From Escherichia phage JMPW1: a DNA stretch of 49,628 nt. The position numbers were made by a program, and so were the translations under genes. The stretch lies in the sequence record NC_041874.1, one strand, 5' to 3'. The notes below the pieces were generated by a model, which did not search any database, was not told the origin of the DNA, and was given only the letters and a program-made list of their open reading frames with translations. Within the stretch, counting starts at the first letter, position 1. Each line of letters starts with the position of its first letter. Shown here piece after piece: positions 1 through 31,116 of this stretch.

Positions 1-102
1 ATTGCATGGTTTGCAACAGTTGGTTGATTTGTTGCTTAGATTGCAATGATTGTGAGAGGGGGGGATCTAGTGTTGCCCGGTTCGCCTGGTAGTCATCTCC
101 AT

Positions 103-121
103 TTTTAGCAAAAAGTGCTAT
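103..121 (-). promoter_or_regulatory. Conserved box, minus orientation (reads ATAGCACTTTTTGCTAAAA on - strand), at left genome end
   Basis: Plus-strand TTTTAGCAAAAAGTGCTAT matches the box family found at about 25 gene boundaries. Confidence 0.4.
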
Positions 122-136
122 CGATTACACTTTACC

Positions 137-165
137 TTGTCACAGATGTAATATTTGTCTAGAAT
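137..165 (+). promoter_or_regulatory. Sigma70-type promoter TTGTCA-17 bp-TAGAAT
   Basis: -35 TTGTCA at 137-142, 17-nt spacer, -10 TAGAAT at 160-165, read directly. Confidence 0.5.
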
Positions 166-225
166 CGCACTTGTGACAAAATTACACACTGTGACGCCTC
201 TAAATATACATATAGATATATGTAT

Positions 226-242
226 CTATATAATATATATAG
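226..242. repeat. 17-bp AT-rich motif CTATATAATATATATAG, copy 1 (exact second copy at 30755-30771)
   Basis: Identical 17-mer read in both AT-rich control regions. Confidence 0.7.
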
Positions 243-524
243 TGTTTTCTTTATTTATATATATAGATAATTATATTGTAATAGTTGTGTATAGTTGTCT
301 TACATTGTCTAGCGTACTGTTGGCATATTTCTATCTGCATGTTTATATATACAGTACTTTTTTGAGAGCTATATATTTCTATAGTGACTCTAGACAGCTA
401 GACAAATGTTACACAGCTTAATATCGGCTCGCAGTCATTGACAGCTCTGTATCGCACTGTCACAATGTCAATTGTTGACACATTATGACGCCATTTACAC
501 ACGAATAGACAAAGAGGATATATT

Positions 525-1040
525 ATGAGCAATACCAATCAGGAATTAAAAATCACCGATATGATTCGACTAACCTGCGATGCAATGTATCGCGACAAAG
601 GCATGAATGAGTTCTCTTTCGTGGCTGATGATATGGCCCTCGAGGCCGCGCGATTCTACTTCCGTGACCAGGAGGTAAGTGATAGCGATCTTGAATCTGC
701 CGCTGCCGGATGGGTGGACCAGAACCAGGGTGAGGTGGAGAAGCGATTCAAGTCTGCTTTCATTACGCCAATCATTACCCGGCACTTTTGCAAGTATGGC
801 AAGGTGGCAAAGGTGAAGGTAGGCCGGAATGACGCTGCAATCACAATGATAACGGTTATCGTTACCGACGAAGAGATTCCCGTGAAGAAGCGCCGCAGTC
901 GGAAGAAAGTTAGCCTGGCCGATTGCCTGGATTCGTTTGTGGTTGATGTGGGTAAACTGGCTGATAGCGAATTGATGACTCGTGACGTAAACGAGATCGT
1001 TCGCCAGATGAAGGCGCATATCGAAAAGTGTGGACTGTAA
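525..1040 (+). CDS. hypothetical early protein (171 aa)
   Basis: ORF with RBS AAAGAGGA 9 nt upstream of ATG; first gene after left control region. Confidence 0.6.
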   Translation: MSNTNQELKITDMIRLTCDAMYRDKGMNEFSFVADDMALEAARFYFRDQEVSDSDLESAAAGWVDQNQGEVEKRFKSAFITPIITRHFCKYGKVAKVKVGRNDAAITMITVIVTDEEIPVKKRRSRKKVSLADCLDSFVVDVGKLADSELMTRDVNEIVRQMKAHIEKCGL

Positions 1041-20554: not shown

Positions 20555-23428
20555 ATGGTTGATAAGGTAGCAGGTCTGTCGCTTGACGTTGATGTGTCAA
20601 CAGTGCAGCGCGCCGTCAAGTCACTGAAAGAGTTTTCAAAGGCCAACGACCAGGCCGCTGATTCTATGGGTTCTTTAATCAATGAGTCAGAGGTTGCAAA
20701 ACAGAAGGCCAAAGAACACGCTGAACAACTAAGGCGCCAGAGAAAAGAGTATGAGGCCGTGGAGAAGGCAATCGATCCTACAGTATCAAAAATGGAAAGG
20801 TTGAAGATTGCATCTCAGCAGCTTGATAAACTCTGGCAGCAGGGAGTCGTTCCAGATGAGACGTTTTTCCGTTTGGGTGAAATGCTGGATCTGCAAAACG
20901 CAAAACTTGCTCGCAGCCGGGCTATGCTTACGGAAGAAGGTCAGGCGGCATTGCAGGAAGCGAAAGCAAAAGAGCAGGCGGCAGCACGAAGCAAGGCGTT
21001 CATGGATGCCCTGAATGGTCAAGTTAACGCGATCGGCAAGACTCATGCTGAATTGATGGAACTGAAAGCGGCTGAGCTTGGTTTATCGAAAGAAGCAGCA
21101 CCACTAATCGCAAAACTTAAAGATCAAGGCCGAGCTATGAATGCAGCAGGTATTAGCGCCGGGGAATACAGGCAAGCAATGCGAATGCTTCCTGCACAGA
21201 TTACCGACGTCGTTACATCTCTTGCGTCCGGCATGCCAGTTTGGATGGTTGCCATCCAGCAAGGCGGTCAAATCAAGGACTCGTTCGGCGGGATTGGTAA
21301 TACGTTTAAAGTGTTGCTGAGTTATATTAATCCAGTCACAGCAGGTATTGGCGTTCTTGTTGGTTCGTTAGGTCTTCTGGCGAAAGCTGGTTATGACTCT
21401 TACAAGTCAATAACTGATATTCAGAATGCGCTTATTGAGACTGGCGGTTATGCAGGTGTTACGGCTGAAGATCTTGATTCAGTGTCTAAAAAGATCGCGC
21501 AGACAAGTAACTCAACCATTGGGAGTATTCGCGAGATTGTAACGGAGTTGGCAAGTTCTGGTAAGTACACCCGCGAGCAGATCCAGAACATCACTAAGGC
21601 TACCGCAGAGTGGTCAGCGTCAACAGGAAAATCAGCAAGTCAAATTATTTCTGAGTTCGACAAAATCGCAAGCGATCCGGTAAAAGGTCTGAAGAAGTTA
21701 AATGAGCAATATAATTTCCTTGAAAAAGGGCAGCTTACCTATATCGATACATTAAGCCGGACGAAAGGAGAAACTGAGGCAGTATCTGAAGCAACGAAAT
21801 TATTCGCCGACGTAATGGAAAAGCGAATGAAGTCAATAGCGGATAATGCTACCCCTCTGGAAAAAATGTGGAACGATATTAAACAATGGGCTTCGGACGC
21901 GTGGGGATGGGTGGGTGATCATACACTTGGGGCGCTAAACCTGATTATTGATGTGGTTCAGGGTACAGTGATTCAGGTAAAAATGATTCTTGCGAAAGGT
22001 GACGAATACATCTCAAACTTTATTGCCTCTGCGATTAAGGCTACACAGTCTCTTCCTGGTATGAGTGATTTCGGCGCTGATGTACTGAAGGAGCAGGAGA
22101 ATATTGTAAAAAGTTCTCGCGACAACTACGATCAGTTATCTTCAGAGCTTGACGCTATTAACGCTCGTGTAGAAAAAGGAGAGATGGGATACATTGAAGC
22201 AATGAGGCAGCGTCGCACTCTTGAAAAGCAGTACAGCGAGGAAACTAAGGAGGCAATAAGGAAAGAAGCAGAAGAGATCGAGAAGCGAAACCGAGAACGA
22301 AATAAGCAGTCGAAAATTGTACGCTCACCGACAGAGCAATTCGACAAGGAGTTAATTTCACTCAAGGCTCAACTTAAGGTATTGCAGGAGCACAAGGAGA
22401 TCGGGCAAAAACTTTCCGCACAGAGAAAGGCGTTGTTTACAACTGAGGCTACGATCGCTGTTCTTCGCGAAGCCAGCTCTAAGCGTCAGTTGTCTGCGGA
22501 AGAAAAAGCGTTGCTGGCAAGTCAGGAGAGAGTTATTGAGCTTGCAAAACAGAAGGCCGAGATTGGCGATCAGATTGTTAAGCAACAACAGTTGAATGAT
22601 CTTACCGATAAATCTCTGAAGTTTGTCAATGAGATGACGGCGGCGACAGAACAGCTTAACGCGTCACGCGGTCTTAGCACGCGCGAAATGGAACGACAAG
22701 CGGAACTGGCTAAAATAACCACTGATTACATCAACTCTGGAGGTAGTGAGGGAGACGAAAAACTCCAGAACATGATTAAGGCGCAAAATGATTACTACGC
22801 TGCGGAAGATGCCAAGCGTGCTGACTGGTTAGCTGGTGCTGAAAGTGCTTTTGCTGATTACGGTGATGCAGCAATGGATATGTACGGCAATGTTAACGAT
22901 ATCGCGTCAAGTGCACTTAACGGAATGTCAGATATGATGGTTCAATTTCTGACCACAGGAAAAGCGAACTTTGAGGACTTTGCGAAAAATATCATCGGCA
23001 TGATTATAAAGATGATTGCTCAGATGGTAATCTTCAATACGATCTCAGGCATGATGGGCGGTAAGACGTGGAGCTTTGCTGGAGGGGCGTCGTCTGGTGC
23101 TTCTGCGGCATCACAGGCAACCCCTACACCTGCCGCTTCTGTTTTTAGATCTGCATCATCCGGCGGGGCCGCTGTATCACTTGCTGCCGCAGCGGGTAGC
23201 GTGGCAACCTCTGGATTCAACGCATCAAACTCGGCGCCAAAGGCGATAAACCATTCAGGAGGTGGAACGGTAGTTGATGTTAGTGGAATGGAGGTGAGAG
23301 TTGACAACGGCTCAGATCCGAGGGGGATTTCTCAGGGTGTAGAAATGATGTTCAAAAAGATGATTCGCGAGTCTTGTTCGCAGGGCGGCGAGGTTTATAA
23401 TTACATTCAGGAAAAAACAGGAGGCTAA
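20555..23428 (+). CDS. tail tape measure protein
   Basis: About 957 aa, coiled-coil-rich, Gly/Ala/Met-rich hydrophobic segment, follows frameshift chaperones. Confidence 0.85.
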
Positions 23429-23873: not shown

Positions 23874-24479
23874 ATGCAGGCCCAGCAAACCGGAACACTA
23901 CCGCCGAAAGAAATTACATTCCGTGGTGAGCAATACGGAGCGCGCCCGTTCGGTATATCCGGGATCTCGTTTGATAGTTCCGGCAAGGCAACAAAACCAC
24001 AATTAACAGTGGCAAATATTGATAGCAGAGTGTCGGCAATGATTCGCGCATATAACGGATTGATGCAGGCGAAGGTGACAATCTGGATCACTCAAAAGGA
24101 CTTAATTCAACCTGACGGCTCAATCGCTGATGGAGCTTACCGTAAACTGGTATACTATATCGAACGCCCGAGCTATGTCGATAAGAGTGTTGCGTGGTTC
24201 GATCTCACATCACCGTATGATATGGATGGCATCATGATCCCATCTCGACTCACACAAAGCGTATGCTATTGGGCGCAGCGTGGATGGTATAAAACCGGGA
24301 AGGGCTGCGGATATAACGGGCAAAACGGTTACTTTGATAAAGACAATAACCCGGTAGATGATCCTTCACTGGACTTTTGCCCAGGAACGGTAACGGCCTG
24401 CCGCCTGCGATTCGGCGCAAACAATGAATTGGATTTTGGCGGTTGCGCTGTCGCTTCACTACAGAGGAAAAATCAATGA
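23874..24479 (+). CDS. minor tail protein L-like
   Basis: Gene order M-L-K-I-J; RGEQYGARPFGISG and LTVANI resemble lambda gpL; start uncertain. Confidence 0.6.
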   Translation: MQAQQTGTLPPKEITFRGEQYGARPFGISGISFDSSGKATKPQLTVANIDSRVSAMIRAYNGLMQAKVTIWITQKDLIQPDGSIADGAYRKLVYYIERPSYVDKSVAWFDLTSPYDMDGIMIPSRLTQSVCYWAQRGWYKTGKGCGYNGQNGYFDKDNNPVDDPSLDFCPGTVTACRLRFGANNELDFGGCAVASLQRKNQ

Positions 24480-25883: not shown

Positions 25884-28800
25884 ATGATTCAAAAAGTGAT
25901 AAGTGGATCTAAAGGCGGCTCGCCTAAGCCTCATAATCCAGTTGAGATGGAAGACAATCTAATCTCAATCAACAAAATCAAGATCCTGTTAGCTGTATCT
26001 GATGGTGAAATTGACGAAACATTCAGCCTGAAGCAGTTGATGTTTAACTCAGTCCCGGTGCAAAACGAGGATGGATCGTTCAACTTCGAAGGGGTAAAGG
26101 CTGAGTTCAGGCCGGGAACTCAGACGCAGGAATACATCAAGGGCATGGAGGATAGTTCCAGCGAGGTAACTGTAAATCGTGAGGTTACTACCGATAACCC
26201 ATACACGATCTCAGTGACCAATAAAACACTATCGGCAATACGCATCAAAATGTTCATGCCTCGCGGTGTACGAATTGAAAGTAACGGTGATAAAAATGGC
26301 GTAAGAGTTGAGTATGAGGTGCAACAAGCTGTTGATGGCGGTTCGTTTGAGACTGTTCTTACTGACGTAATTGAAGGCAAAACAATGTCAGGTTACGACA
26401 GAAGTCGACGTGTAAACCTGCCTAGCTTTAACAACCAGGTAATATTCAGAGTTGTTCGAAAGACTCCAGACTCTAACGACTCTAACGTTGTTGATGCGAT
26501 CCAGGTAAAGAGCTATGCCGAGGTGATTGATGCCAAATTCCGTTACCCTCTGACAGGTCTTCTTTTCGTCGAGTTCGACTCGAAGATGTTCCCAAACCAG
26601 TTACCTACGATCTCAATTCGTAAGCGCTGGAAGATTGTAAACGTTCCATCAAACTACGATCCGGAATCACGAACCTACAACGGCAATTGGGATGGGACTT
26701 TCAAGAAGGCGTGGACTAACAACCCGGCATGGGTTCTATACGATCTGATGATTAATCAGCGCTACGGTCTGGATCAGAAGGAGCTTGGAATCTCCGTCGA
26801 TAAATGGGCGCTCTACGAGGCCGCGCAATATTGCGATCAGATGGTTCCTGATGGGAAGGGCGGGACGGAGCCTAGATACCTTTGCGACGTGATAATTCAG
26901 TCACAGACTGATGCGTACAAGGTGATTCGAGATATTTGCTCAATATTCCGTGGCATGAGCTTCTGGAATGGTGAAAGCATCTCGGTAATCATCGACAGAC
27001 CGCGTGAGCCTGCGTACATCTTCACTAACGACAACGTTGTTAATGGTGACTTCTCCTATACGTTCGCAAGCGAAAAGAGTATGTACACGACGTGTAACGT
27101 GATGTTTGACGATGAACAAAACATGTATCAACAGGACGTTGAGCCAGTATTCGATCGCGAGGCGACTCTGCGGTTCGGTAATAACGTAACCAGCATTACA
27201 GCGATAGGTTGCACGCGTCGAAGCGAGGCTAACCGACGAGGGCGATGGATTCTGAAGACCAACCTTCGCAGCACTACGGTAAACTTCGCGACCGGACTGG
27301 AAGGGATGATCCCGACAATCGGAGATGTTGTGGCAATAGCTGATAACTTCTGGTCAAGTAACTTGACGATGAACCTATCAGGGCGCTTGCTCGAAGTGTC
27401 TGGAAGTCAGATTTTCTTGCCGTTCCGTGTGGATGCACGCGCGGGTGACTTTATTATCGTAAATAAGCCAGATGGCAAGCCCGTGAAGCGCACAATCTCA
27501 AGCGTTAGTGCGGATGGCAAGACTATAGAGATTAACATCGGCTTTGGCTTTCCTGTAAAGCCTAACACGGTATTCGCTATCGACAGAACCGACATTGCGT
27601 TACAGCAGTACGTCGTGACAAAAATCGATAAGGGCGATGATGACGAGGAATTTACCTACAAAATCACGGCGGTGGAGTACGATCCTAACAAGTACGATGA
27701 GATTGATTACGGAGTTAACATCGACGACAGGCCGACGAGCATCGTTGAACCAGATCAGATCCCTAGACCGGAAAACGTGCAAGTGTCCTCAGAGTCGAGA
27801 ATCGTCCAGGGGATGAGCGTAGAAACGATGATTGTTAGCTGGGATAAAGTGCCGTACGCAGTTTTCTATGACGTACAGTGGAGAAAGGATAACGGCAACT
27901 GGCAAAACGTTCCGCAGACAGCAAACAAAGAGGTTTATGTTGAAGGGATTTACGCTGGCAACTATCAGGTTCGCGTTCGCTCCGTAGCTGGTTCCGGTAC
28001 GACTTCAGGATGGTCAAATGTCGTAGCTGCGACGCTGACGGGCAAACAAGGTGAGCCGGGTGGACCGATTAACCTTACAGCTACGGATGATGTTGTTTTT
28101 GGTATCCGTACAAAATGGGGGTTCTCTGATGGTTCTGGAGATACGGCCTATACAGAGTTGCAACAGTCACCAGATGGAACAGTGGATAACGCAAGTTTGC
28201 TTTCTTTGATTCCGTACCCGCAGCATGAGTATTATCACTCACCGATGCCTGGAGGGAATATTGTTTGGTATCGTGTAAGGACGGTTGATAGGATCGGTAA
28301 CGTGTCTCAGTGGACTGATTTTGTCAGAGGTATGGCATCAACAAACGTTGACGATATCATTGGGGAGATTTCTGTCGATATCGAAAACTCGCCGGGTTAC
28401 GAGTGGCTTGTTGATAACGCAACCGACAACGCGGCGCAGAACGCAGCTAACGCAGAGGCAGCAATAGAAAACGCGCTCGCCAATGACAAAGACGCGATCT
28501 ACATGAAGAAGGAGAACGGAAAACGAAAAGCTGAGTACACGAAATCACTGAAACTTATTGCTGATGAGACGCAGGCGCGAGTGACGGCGATCGAGCAATT
28601 GAAGGCAAGTTTTGGCGATCAGATTAGCGCTAGCAACAGCGAATTGCGTGAAGTTATCGCAACTGAGACTGGAGCGCTATCGCGTGAAATTGACCAACTC
28701 AGGGCAGAGATTGGTGATGATATCCAGGCAAGTTTGACCGATATCAGAGAGGCTATAGCAAACGAGACTGAGGCGAGAACGCAAGCTGACTTGTCGTTAA

Positions 28801-29303
28801 GCGCGAGGCTTGGGAATAATGAGGCAGCACTTTCTCAAAAACTTGATTCGTGGAGCAATGCAGATTCGACTGGTGCAATGTACGGCGTCAAGCTCGGTCT
28901 GAAGTATAACGGCCAAGAATACAGTGCAGGCATGGCTATGTCTCTGATTGGTTCCGGAGCTGCGGTTAAGGCGCAGATTTTGTTTGAGGCATCACGATTT
29001 GCCATCATGAATGGAATGAATGGTCAGACTCAGTACCCATTCGTTGTTGAGAATGGCCAGGTTATTTTAAGTAGCGCGATTATCAAGAACGGATTCATCA
29101 CTAACGCAATGATTGGAAACTTCATCCAGTCGAATAACTATGTATTTAACCAGTCCGGATGGAGGCTTGACAAGGGTGGAACATTCGAAAACTACGGAAG
29201 TGACGGTGAGGGTGCAATGAAGCAAACTAATACCACAATATCTGTTAGGGATGCGAGTGGTCGCCTGAGGGTTCAGATTGGCAGGTTGACTGGTTCATGG
29301 TAA
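25884..29303 (+). CDS. central tail fibre / host specificity protein J-like
   Basis: 1139 aa, last gene of M-L-K-I-J order. Confidence 0.8.
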   Translation: MIQKVISGSKGGSPKPHNPVEMEDNLISINKIKILLAVSDGEIDETFSLKQLMFNSVPVQNEDGSFNFEGVKAEFRPGTQTQEYIKGMEDSSSEVTVNREVTTDNPYTISVTNKTLSAIRIKMFMPRGVRIESNGDKNGVRVEYEVQQAVDGGSFETVLTDVIEGKTMSGYDRSRRVNLPSFNNQVIFRVVRKTPDSNDSNVVDAIQVKSYAEVIDAKFRYPLTGLLFVEFDSKMFPNQLPTISIRKRWKIVNVPSNYDPESRTYNGNWDGTFKKAWTNNPAWVLYDLMINQRYGLDQKELGISVDKWALYEAAQYCDQMVPDGKGGTEPRYLCDVIIQSQTDAYKVIRDICSIFRGMSFWNGESISVIIDRPREPAYIFTNDNVVNGDFSYTFASEKSMYTTCNVMFDDEQNMYQQDVEPVFDREATLRFGNNVTSITAIGCTRRSEANRRGRWILKTNLRSTTVNFATGLEGMIPTIGDVVAIADNFWSSNLTMNLSGRLLEVSGSQIFLPFRVDARAGDFIIVNKPDGKPVKRTISSVSADGKTIEINIGFGFPVKPNTVFAIDRTDIALQQYVVTKIDKGDDDEEFTYKITAVEYDPNKYDEIDYGVNIDDRPTSIVEPDQIPRPENVQVSSESRIVQGMSVETMIVSWDKVPYAVFYDVQWRKDNGNWQNVPQTANKEVYVEGIYAGNYQVRVRSVAGSGTTSGWSNVVAATLTGKQGEPGGPINLTATDDVVFGIRTKWGFSDGSGDTAYTELQQSPDGTVDNASLLSLIPYPQHEYYHSPMPGGNIVWYRVRTVDRIGNVSQWTDFVRGMASTNVDDIIGEISVDIENSPGYEWLVDNATDNAAQNAANAEAAIENALANDKDAIYMKKENGKRKAEYTKSLKLIADETQARVTAIEQLKASFGDQISASNSELREVIATETGALSREIDQLRAEIGDDIQASLTDIREAIANETEARTQADLSLSARLGNNEAALSQKLDSWSNADSTGAMYGVKLGLKYNGQEYSAGMAMSLIGSGAAVKAQILFEASRFAIMNGMNGQTQYPFVVENGQVILSSAIIKNGFITNAMIGNFIQSNNYVFNQSGWRLDKGGTFENYGSDGEGAMKQTNTTISVRDASGRLRVQIGRLTGSW

Positions 29304-29310
29304 TATCAAG

Positions 29311-29336
29311 GGCATCGAGAGATGCCATTTTCTTTT
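29311..29336 (+). terminator. intrinsic terminator
   Basis: GGCATC-GAGA-GATGCC then ATTTTCTTTT. Confidence 0.5.
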
Positions 29337-29348
29337 GGAGGATTTATT

Positions 29349-29654
29349 ATGGCGTACGGTATATCAACTTGGGACGCAAATGGCGTTTATAATAACTATG
29401 GAATTAAGCCTGTTACGGTTGTTGGTTGGAACTTTTTGTCAGCAGGACAGAATTCAGCATCGTTCAGCTATCAAGTTCCTCCTGGTATGCATGTGAACTA
29501 CGTTATAAGCCTTGACGATGGCGCCATTAGTGGGCCTGGCAGGAAAATTATTGCTAGCGGTAATACGATAACAGTAACGCCAACAAACTCACCTGGGCCA
29601 AACGTGTACCCATCATCAAACTGTTACTTAATAGCATATCTGGAGAATGATTAA
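29349..29654 (+). CDS. hypothetical tail-associated protein (101 aa)
   Basis: ORF trimmed to ATG after GGAGGA. Confidence 0.4.
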   Translation: MAYGISTWDANGVYNNYGIKPVTVVGWNFLSAGQNSASFSYQVPPGMHVNYVISLDDGAISGPGRKIIASGNTITVTPTNSPGPNVYPSSNCYLIAYLEND

Positions 29655-30343
29655 TGTCATACGGTGCTTTTATAGATGTAAACGGAAACCCATTCATAAC
29701 CCCGTTATCCACGCCATTCGCCTTATATGAGAGAGGGGAAATTCAATCAGTAAATGTTAGTGGTTCACAGGTTGCGGAGAGATATGTTCGGATACCTACA
29801 GGTGTTCCGGTTATAGCTTTTTGCAAAACAACAAACACGCAGCAGGGGACCGCGCTTTCAGCCTTTACTTTCAGAAGCGGACCCAATGTTGGAACTGTTT
29901 ATATAAGGGGGACAAATCCAGCAAACCAATCATACACGCTAACATACTACATATTTGCCATATTTGAGCAGTCACTACCGAGCTGGGGTATGGCAATATG
30001 GGATTCGTCAGGAAAGCTAGTGCTGACAAATGAGACAAAAGTCCTTAGTGATTTGGTTACAATCGGCACTCCTGGATACGCTGGAGGTGGATTAAACATA
30101 GACACAACACTCAGCGGAAGCTACGCAGTTGTTCCAACTATACTTGGCAACTATCAAATTGTTATTGGCAGGCTGCCAACTGGGCAACCCATAATAGGAA
30201 ACTCAACAGCAGGCAGCTCATGCAGGTACAACGGGAGCGCAACTAGGATAAATGCAGCAGCAACCACAGCGGCAGGTCAGATAATGAACACCACGAATAA
30301 TGGAAATATCATAACAGCAATCAACACAGCAGCGTATGACTAA
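29654..30343 (+). CDS. hypothetical tail-associated protein (229 aa)
   Basis: ORF; T/N/G-rich composition. Confidence 0.4.
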   Translation: MSYGAFIDVNGNPFITPLSTPFALYERGEIQSVNVSGSQVAERYVRIPTGVPVIAFCKTTNTQQGTALSAFTFRSGPNVGTVYIRGTNPANQSYTLTYYIFAIFEQSLPSWGMAIWDSSGKLVLTNETKVLSDLVTIGTPGYAGGGLNIDTTLSGSYAVVPTILGNYQIVIGRLPTGQPIIGNSTAGSSCRYNGSATRINAAATTAAGQIMNTTNNGNIITAINTAAYD

Positions 30344-30366
30344 GCCCCTTGCGGGGCTTTTCTTTT
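30343..30366 (+). terminator. intrinsic terminator ending late operon
   Basis: AGCCCC-TTGC-GGGGCT then TTTCTTTT. Confidence 0.65.
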
Positions 30367-30592
30367 ATATCGAGCAATCGTGAGACTTGAAGTTTTTCTC
30401 TGATACGTAGTTGAATGAGAATGGGTATCCAGCACGCAATAGCATCTCCTCTCCGCGCATCTTAGATCCAAAAACGTAAACCGAGTACTCTGCGCCTCCT
30501 GATTCATAAATTGCCGTACAAGTGCGCTCAGGCATCGATGAGCAACCAGTCAGGATGAATGCCGCAGCGATAATGGTGATTAACTTTTTCAT
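30365..30592 (-). CDS. small lipoprotein, candidate superinfection-exclusion protein (Cor/Llp-like)
   Basis: Signal peptide ending in lipobox LTGC; lone reverse-strand gene downstream of tail genes; own sigma70 promoter. Confidence 0.45.
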   Translation of the reverse strand: MKKLITIIAAAFILTGCSSMPERTCTAIYESGGAEYSVYVFGSKMRGEEMLLRAGYPFSFNYVSEKNFKSHDCSI

Positions 30593-31116
30593 TTGTATGT
30601 CCTCGTCGTTAGTGTGATTGCATTGTATGTCGCATTTACTTTTATTGCAATAGCACTATTACAATTTTTTCGTGTAACAGGTGTCTATTTTTGTAACCGG
30701 AGCGGGTGTTACAAAATCCACCCCATCCGACCGCAGAGGGATATGATAAAAACTCTATATAATATATATAGATAGATAATATTTAATTTTAGCTTTATAT
30801 ATAATTATTGTTGTGTAACAGTTGTCTATTGTGTAACTGGTGATTTGATTGATTCGTCAAATTTCTATCATATATGTTCAAAATTTAATCAATATGGATT
30901 CTACTTGTAGCTATCTCTGTATTTCTAAGAAAAAGCGGTTACAAGTATTACACAGTAGACATCACATAAAAATAGACTTAAGCCATTGATTCCGTTAATG
31001 CTGGTTGTAACTTGAGCGATATAGACACGCTATTACACACCAATTACATGTATCCGATTGACTAAACGCTGTTAATGGCTATAATGGATTCATCGTAAAC
31101 GAAGGAGATAAACGCA
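30593..31116. promoter_or_regulatory. Divergent AT-rich control region with iteron-like repeats (candidate origin or early control region)
   Basis: No convincing ORF; direct repeats GTGTAACAG(G/T)TGTCTATT at 30672-30689 and 30813-30830; CTATATAATATATATAG at 30755-30771; several TTACACA motifs. Confidence 0.5.
31058..31085 (+). promoter_or_regulatory. Sigma70-type promoter TTGACT-16 bp-TATAAT for recombination operon
   Basis: -35 31058-31063, -10 31080-31085. Confidence 0.55.

Follow-up and report, generated by a model that had tools for sequence, protein, structure and literature searches.

What does the single reverse-strand gene behind the tail genes of Escherichia phage JMPW1 encode, and what might a virulent phage gain from it? 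The window analysed here, that is, the whole stretch of 49,628 bases, is the complete, circularly permuted genome of this T1-like virulent coliphage, which is classified in Drexlerviridae, Tunavirinae, Tunavirus, species JMPW1. Phage phi2013 (MT427400.3) matches the window in three collinear blocks at 99.94-100% identity. Over the 1.9 kb round the gene, identity reaches 100% with phi2013 and vB_EcoS_IME167 and 96% with T1; at the DNA level, Tunavirus phages including T1 and phi2013 are 95-100% identical to JMPW1 at this locus. A preliminary description of this DNA had proposed a lipoprotein that masks the phage's own receptor. The features on which our reading is based are collected in Table 1.

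Table 1. Features of the cor locus and of the genes beside it (positions are those of the window; a full stop marks features without a strand)
Feature	Position	Strand	Basis
gpJ-like central tail fibre / tail tip protein, 1139 aa, heads the cassette	25884..29303	+	ORF; annotation in relatives
101-aa gp22-like protein	29349..29654	+	PHROG 557, E 1.5e-31; phi2013/T1 annotation
229-aa gp23-like protein, adjoins cor, convergent	29654..30343	+	PHROG 425, E 4.8e-68
GC-rich hairpin between the convergent 229-aa gene and cor	30342..30359	.	terminator scan
cor CDS, 75-aa prolipoprotein, Cor superinfection exclusion protein	30365..30592	-	ORF; NF047972 and PHROG 1119 matches
Mature domain (residues 18-75), predicted five-stranded small beta-barrel, conserved Cys25/Cys73, AGYPF motif	30365..30541	-	AF2 model
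Lipoprotein signal peptide (residues 1-16) and lipidated Cys17	30542..30592	-	read from sequence; LPAM_1
Lipobox LTGC (L14-T15-G16-C17)	30542-30553	-	read from sequence
Shine-Dalgarno GAGGA, 7 nt 5' of the cor ATG	30600..30604	-	read from sequence
Candidate sigma-70 promoter of cor, TTGCAA-17-TACAAT	30622..30650	-	consensus scan 9/12; conservation
Near-palindrome ATTGCAATAG-CA-CTATTACAAT, overlaps the -35	30644..30665	.	9/10 pairing in JMPW1

The open reading frame starts with ATG and encodes a precursor of 75 aa, whose translation begins MKKLITIIAAAFILTGCSS (sequence MKKLITIIAAAFILTGCSSMPERTCTAIYESGGAEYSVYVFGSKMRGEEMLLRAGYPFSFNYVSEKNFKSHDCSI). Its signal peptide consists of a KK n-region, a hydrophobic h-region and the lipobox (MKKLITIIAAAFILTG/C). 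The Pfam model LPAM_1 matches the protein at 20.1 bits (cutoff 20), G16 and C17 are unchanged throughout our alignment A1, and the Shine-Dalgarno sequence is unchanged in 10 Tunavirus phages. The 75-aa lipoprotein with an LTGC lipobox described earlier is thus borne out by the ORF, the lipobox, LPAM_1 and the ribosome-binding site together, and we rejected the reading of 30365-30592 as a chance ORF. Under the Lol sorting rule, Ser rather than Asp at position +2 directs a lipoprotein to the outer membrane. The residue that follows the lipid-bearing Cys of Cor is Ser, not Asp, and delivery to the outer membrane is therefore expected.

Family searches place the protein with little ambiguity. The NCBIfam equivalog NF047972, 'phage exclusion lipoprotein Cor', matches it over its full length (56 bits, cutoff 31, E 3e-15), and PHROG 1119, 'Cor superinfection exclusion protein', which is also matched by N15 Cor, phi80 Cor and T5 Llp, does so at E 4.7e-30. 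It is 100% identical to the 'super-infection exclusion protein' of IME167/phi2013, and identity to T1 Cor (AAP49969.1, CPTT1_048, 'lysogenic conversion protein Cor') is 97.3% over all 75 residues. A tblastn search finds cor in 193 phage records. In an alignment of relatives down to 29% identity (A3), C25, C73, G55 and F58 are all unchanged, and the lipobox Cys is nearly invariant, missing only in one N-terminally truncated member. The mature protein (~60 aa) carries, beside the lipid-bearing residue, two conserved cysteines that could form a disulfide and an (R/K)AGYPF motif. Given these matches, we consider it near-certain that 30365-30592 holds cor of a virulent, T1-like coliphage.

When 1.8 billion representative proteins were searched exhaustively with a Cor profile, only 17 clusters came back at E <= 0.001, about a dozen of which are Cor-like proteins of 55-106 aa, nearly all with a lipobox. 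With so few clusters, Cor is a small family. A word-indexed protein search with Cor recovered close relatives only. Pfam holds no Cor family, and its models gave only LPAM_1 and a sub-threshold match to PF24052, 'Phage lipoprotein family' (17.6 bits, cutoff 27). Matches of Cor to designed armadillo-repeat proteins (4rv1, 4hxt), obtained with phmmer against PDB sequences, were discarded as spurious sums with no significant single domain.

T1 Cor shares with JMPW1 Cor its position, reverse orientation, flanking genes and terminator hairpin, and the promoter block is identical. The two proteins differ by two amino acids, and the JMPW1 phage belongs to the species Tunavirus JMPW1, not Tunavirus T1. 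The Cor proteins of phi80, N15, HK022 and mEp167 share the NF047972/PHROG 1119 family, the length, the lipobox, the two cysteines and AGYPF, but those of phi80 and N15 are only 33-36% identical to JMPW1 Cor (phi80, 33%; N15, 36% in a full-length alignment that brings both cysteines and AGYPF into register). The N15 and phi80 genes are co-oriented with the tail genes and are expressed from the prophage as lysogenic-conversion genes, whereas JMPW1 cor is inverted, belongs to a virulent phage and faces a divergent regulatory region. The experimentally studied exclusion lipoproteins that inactivate FhuA are those of these temperate phages. For phi80, N15 and mEp167 Cor, work cited in two recent sources shows that expression renders cells resistant to FhuA-dependent phages and impairs FhuA functions (PMC13164509; bioRxiv 10.64898/2026.03.26.714494). 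Functional data on such proteins come from phi80, N15 and mEp167 Cor and from T5 Llp.

The predicted fold of Cor leads to Llp as well. An AlphaFold2 model built on a 20-sequence alignment has a mean pLDDT of 78.9, with values of 81-93 in 10-residue blocks from residue 21 and low values in the signal peptide. The predicted structure has the small beta-barrel fold of Llp, and T5 Llp is the nearest fold to it among 48,164 PDB chains; Foldseek was much less decisive, placing Llp at rank 39 (E 0.4). BLASTP gives no alignment of Cor with Llp. By hhalign, the Cor profile aligns with Llp end to end at a probability of 94.8%, with both cysteines in register. When the Cor profile is run against PDB sequences, 8a60_B comes first at E 0.0023, in an aligned stretch that takes in the signal peptide; 9rps_D, 'Phage lipoprotein', reaches only E 0.91, over the signal-peptide region. 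Llp fails the NF047972 Cor model, yet joins PHROG 1119. Our computed likeness agrees with the published identity of ~20% between Llp and Cor proteins, disulfide included (PMC9586334), and with reports of shared architecture, both for the predicted structures of T1, phi80, mEp167 and HK022 Cor (bioRxiv 10.64898/2026.03.26.714494) and for KanT1 Cor, at TM 0.69 (PMC13164509).

The likeness to Llp has its limits. T5 Llp, a lytic conversion lipoprotein solved with FhuA (PDB 8A60) and alone (7QJF), lacks the AGYPF motif. The llp gene is divergent from oad (pb5), with which its annotated promoters overlap, whereas JMPW1 cor is convergent with the gp23-like gene behind the gpJ cassette, and JMPW1 has no pb5 homologue. 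A further comparison is offered by the superinfection exclusion lipoproteins of Drexlerviridae that target LptD or BtuB, Rtp for example (PMC12685063, as cited in bioRxiv 10.64898/2026.04.02.716166). These occupy the same slot downstream of gpJ and follow the same logic, a small accessory protein on the periplasmic face of the receptor that the phage uses. They differ from Cor in their receptor, and their sequences are unrelated or very distant.

The same predicted fold bears on another class of small phage proteins. O-spanins, too, are typically small phage lipoproteins that carry an outer-membrane sorting signal, and the gene could on that ground be read as an Rz1-like lipoprotein or another lysis accessory protein. 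We rejected the spanin reading, to which we assign practically no probability: the holin and lysin genes are distant (~12 kb off; phi2013 Gp63-65), cor stands without a partner i-spanin gene, the protein matches Cor family models and no spanin family, and a folded beta-barrel is predicted rather than a proline-rich extended chain. In addition, T1-like phages are described as having a unimolecular spanin (PMC13164509).

The company that cor keeps points to its target. In relatives, the gpJ-like gene is annotated as a tail fiber or J-like tail tip protein. The start that we give for the 101-aa gene is the ATG equivalent to the start used in relatives; a mechanical ORF call begins at 29322. This protein is 58% identical to gp22 of N15 and the 229-aa protein 53% identical to gp23, and both are thus more conserved than Cor, which is 36% identical to its N15 counterpart. 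The order gpJ, 101-aa gene, 229-aa gene, cor is kept in Tunavirinae, Tempevirinae, Rogunavirinae, Dhillonvirus, N15 and phi80, and we found it in T1, ADB-2, BrunoManser, G29-2, SSL-2009a, N15 and phi80. All four genes are co-oriented in N15 and phi80, whereas cor is inverted in T1-like phages and Dhillonvirus. The position and architecture had earlier been described as matching Cor/Llp-type lipoproteins; the position does match, but a reversed cor is characteristic of the T1-like phages and of Dhillonvirus, not of the archetypal phi80 and N15.

Several observations were made on these neighbours. Shigella phage Sf12 (Rogunavirinae; L005 1709-2239) has an additional 176-aa gene between the gp23-like gene and cor, and the cassette is therefore not strictly invariant. 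Pfam finds no family match in the gp22-like and gp23-like proteins. Database names for the two genes are uninformative or doubtful and include 'outer membrane protein', 'membrane associated protein', 'GHMP kinase domain', 'cytolethal distending toxin B' and 'tail spike'.

Published work ties this locus to receptor choice. The locus downstream of gpJ sets receptor specificity in Drexlerviridae (PMC8594841; bioRxiv 10.64898/2026.04.02.716166). The extended cassette of gp22-like, gp23-like and cor genes tracks FhuA use in BASEL phages, and its complete form is reported to be specific for FhuA users (PMC13164509). The gp23-like locus has been linked to FhuA specificity (PMC13164509; bioRxiv 10.64898/2026.04.02.716166), and recent work treats the proteins of the gp22/gp23 locus as a likely FhuA-specific receptor-binding module. 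From the identity of the locus to that of Tunavirus phages and from the correlation of cassette and receptor (PMC13164509), we infer that FhuA is the terminal receptor of JMPW1. One could instead envision a lipoprotein that targets another outer-membrane protein, such as BtuB, LptD or YncD, as in other Drexlerviridae: the locus downstream of gpJ is hypervariable, with alleles that track receptors (PMC8594841; bioRxiv 10.64898/2026.04.02.716166), and BtuB-using phages also carry Cor-like proteins (PMC13164509). Such a target is highly improbable here: the protein is 97% identical to the Cor of T1, the classical FhuA phage, and the cassette is complete, a form that has been reported as specific to phages using FhuA (PMC13164509). 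Two nearly identical phages, phi2013 and KanT1, are moreover called closest relatives, and KanT1 uses FhuA (PMC13164509).

How could a periplasmic lipoprotein close an outer-membrane receptor? T1-like phages use FhuA as their receptor, T1 being the classical FhuA (TonA) phage. The only relative with a solved structure, Llp, binds FhuA periplasmically and acts allosterically, with the extracellular loops EL7 and EL8 folding inward, and a like action is considered likely for T1 and phi80 Cor (PMC9586334). An AF3 model places KanT1 Cor, which is near-identical to JMPW1 Cor, on the periplasmic side of FhuA with an ipTM of 0.84 (PMC13164509). In the scheme that we propose, host RNA polymerase would transcribe cor from its own promoter in the AT-rich gap between cor and the recE-like gene, apart from the tail operon and probably early. 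After export, the 75-aa precursor would receive its lipid on Cys17, and signal peptidase II would remove the signal peptide. The 58-aa mature domain, for which a small SH3-like beta-barrel is predicted, probably with a Cys25-Cys73 disulfide as a clamp, would then sit on the periplasmic side of the TonB-dependent transporter FhuA, presumably bound to it. FhuA would be locked, presumably by an allosteric step, in a state that phage tails cannot use, and by analogy with T5 Llp the plug may shift and the extracellular loops fold inward. FhuA-dependent phages (T1, T5, phi80 and the phage's own progeny) would no longer adsorb to the infected cell or to its debris, so that the cell would be shielded from superinfection and progeny would not be wasted on debris.

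We regard an Llp-like mechanism, by analogy, as probable, and the identity of the gene as cor combined with Llp-like action as very likely the best overall explanation. The earlier assignment to Cor/Llp-type outer-membrane lipoproteins agrees with NF047972, PHROG 1119, the identity to T1, the cassette and the Llp-like predicted fold. The accompanying idea of receptor masking is supported insofar as the phage's own receptor would be blocked; masking from outside does not fit, since Llp binds the periplasmic side (PMC9586334). A recent preprint calls the mechanism of Cor not yet elucidated (bioRxiv 10.64898/2026.03.26.714494). Cor is also reported to interact with other outer-membrane proteins (Arguijo-Hernandez 2018, as cited in PMC13164509), so that binding to FhuA may be only part of its action.

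The details of Cor action at FhuA could also differ from those of Llp. Both T1 and phi80 need TonB-energised FhuA for irreversible adsorption. Cor could occupy the periplasmic mouth or TonB-box region of FhuA and uncouple TonB without remodelling the outer loops, and this alone would exclude T1 and phi80 because both need the energised receptor. Consistent with such an action, Llp sits at the periplasmic face by the plug and its N-terminal region (PMC9586334), and docking of KanT1 Cor by AF3 is confident only when FhuA residues 1-70, TonB box included, are left out (PMC13164509). The fold of Cor is Llp-like, but AGYPF, conserved in Cor proteins, is missing from Llp, and the contact surface of Cor may therefore differ. 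Our computed results fit TonB uncoupling and loop closure alike. Against uncoupling, the structural literature regards Cor as likely Llp-like (PMC9586334), and Cor proteins are reported to inactivate FhuA functions generally (Uc-Mass 2004, as cited in bioRxiv 10.64898/2026.03.26.714494). We therefore consider TonB uncoupling by itself unlikely and prefer loop closure of the Llp kind.

The orientation of cor raises the question of how it is expressed. In phi2013 (99.9% identical), Gp01-Gp46 all lie on the plus strand and Gp47 (cor) lies on the minus strand. Before position 31000, the window holds 19 further minus-strand ORFs of at least 70 aa, which overlap plus-strand ORFs, and plus-strand ORFs span 92% of 1-30343. 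The four longest of these minus-strand shadow ORFs (163, 179, 105 and 107 aa) have no match in PHROG, whereas two of the plus-strand genes that these four overlap match PHROG at E 1e-95 or better. We rejected the four as extra reverse genes, since they have no family support. Over its initial ~9 kb, the plus-strand block consists of successive small ORFs with no assigned function. The late block is thus ~21 kb and not 30 kb, because the structural genes begin at the small terminase, and the earlier claim of the only minus-strand gene in a 30-kb late region stands as to the lone gene and needs correcting as to the extent.

Comparison with phi2013 revealed a separate irregularity within this block. 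At the junction 23816/23817, the window is without 167 bp that are found in phi2013 (22797-22963). These bases seem to be present in all listed relatives too, because each match listed, out of 62 matching records, falls into two pieces that span ~400 bases. The loss affects two genes: the terminator behind the gpM-like gene is deprived of its T-tract, and the gene for the gpL-like minor tail protein (Pfam PF05100) is deprived of its ribosome-binding site and its initial ~40 codons. The length lost is not a multiple of three. The gpL-like ORF at 23874-24479 is left with 201 aa vs 260 aa in phi2013. The gap could reflect a genuine loss from an essential tail gene, or else an artefact of assembly or editing.

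The promoter of cor must sit in the 524-bp gap upstream, because no co-oriented gene lies upstream of cor. The elements of our candidate are TTGCAA at 30650-30645 and TACAAT at 30627-22, with a spacer of 17 nt. By consensus match alone this site is not beyond chance: at 9/12, the scan yields 11 such sites in 2.1 kb vs 6.0 +/- 2.3 in shuffles. Conservation is more telling. In 10 Tunavirus phages, a single column varies in the 29-nt promoter block (3.4%), and two vary in the 29 nt between the block and the cor ATG, against 18.3% in the whole intergenic region, 29% in the 110 nt just upstream and 16.2% in the cor CDS. A cor promoter of its own at 30622-30650 is thus plausible, supported by conservation. 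In other genera (Sertoctavirus, BrunoManser; Hanrivervirus, G29-2; Eastlansingvirus and Dhillonvirus, and among the phages Sf12 and SSL-2009a), the sequences upstream of cor cannot be aligned, and the scan of these regions gave no equivalent cor promoter; the conservation is therefore shown within Tunavirus only. By eye, TGTATAAT / TGTATAGT stand out as extended -10-like elements upstream of cor in distant genera.

The palindrome over the -35 fares less well. Four of its 22 columns (30654, 30655, 30657 and 30665) vary in relatives, at inner positions and one outer position, and pairing falls to 8/10 in sister phages among those listed. Its conserved parts are only the outer half-sites TTGTAAT and ATTGCAA, and ATTGCAA is the -35 itself. 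To call the palindrome a putative operator is a guess to which conservation lends no support. The preliminary description had given cor its own promoter overlapping a palindromic operator; the promoter sequence is present and lies in a conserved block, and the operator stays putative. At the other end of cor, the hairpin at 30342-30359 ends the plus-strand late operon and is the sole hairpin available for ending cor transcripts. In the scan it counts as a terminator for plus-strand transcription alone, since a T-run is missing on the cor side. It has equivalents in BrunoManser and G29-2 and is an annotated terminator in T1.

The intergenic region between cor and the recE-like gene (30593-31116, 524 bp) has features of its own. 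It is AT-rich, with GC down to 28.5%, and its AT-rich core (~30741-30880) is almost invariant in 10 Tunavirus phages, above the neighbouring coding sequence. Seven of the genome's 27 TGTAAC hexamers lie in this gap, where 0.29 would be expected, as do three of the four GTGTAAC-N(2-6)-GTCTA composites in the genome. An exact 18-mer, TCTATATAATATATATAG, occurs at ~225-243 and at 30754-30771 and nowhere else in the genome. The first of these sites lies in a second intergenic region (window 1-525), at the left end of the window, where a minus-strand gene and a plus-strand gene diverge, and ATATATATAGATA and ATTGTAATAGT are likewise common to the two regions. No Rfam family reached its gathering score anywhere in the window.

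On the other side of the gap, the recE-like exonuclease gene has a strong sigma-70 promoter, TTGACT-16-TATAAT (11/12), at 31058-31085 on the plus strand. One of its 28 columns is variable in Tunavirus, and equivalents are present in Sertoctavirus BrunoManser (TTGACT-16-TATAAT) and Hanrivervirus G29-2 (TTGACT-16-TAAAAT). Across genera, this promoter is far better conserved than that of cor. The gap may contain binding sites for a phage or host factor, namely TTGTAAT-N6-ATTGCAA over the -35, clustered GTGTAAC-N3-TGTCTA and the AT-rich core. It is a tentative possibility that the gap is an undescribed T1-like control region, in which such sites time cor against the recombination genes, or a replication origin.

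Cor is a textbook superinfection exclusion gene, and cor of JMPW1 is not new, as the identical protein is already annotated as 'super-infection exclusion protein' in GenBank; the preliminary description had not recognised it as a gene with a name. The T1 genome record annotates T1 Cor as Cor-like, citing the 2004 genome paper, and a 2026 article has a section on the cassette in KanT1, phi2013 and T1 (PMC13164509). For JMPW1, the full cassette of gp22-like, gp23-like and cor genes serves as a marker that predicts use of FhuA. Cells that express cor should, as a prediction, show cross-resistance to T1, T5 and phi80, which bears on the design of phage cocktails and on the control of T1 contamination.
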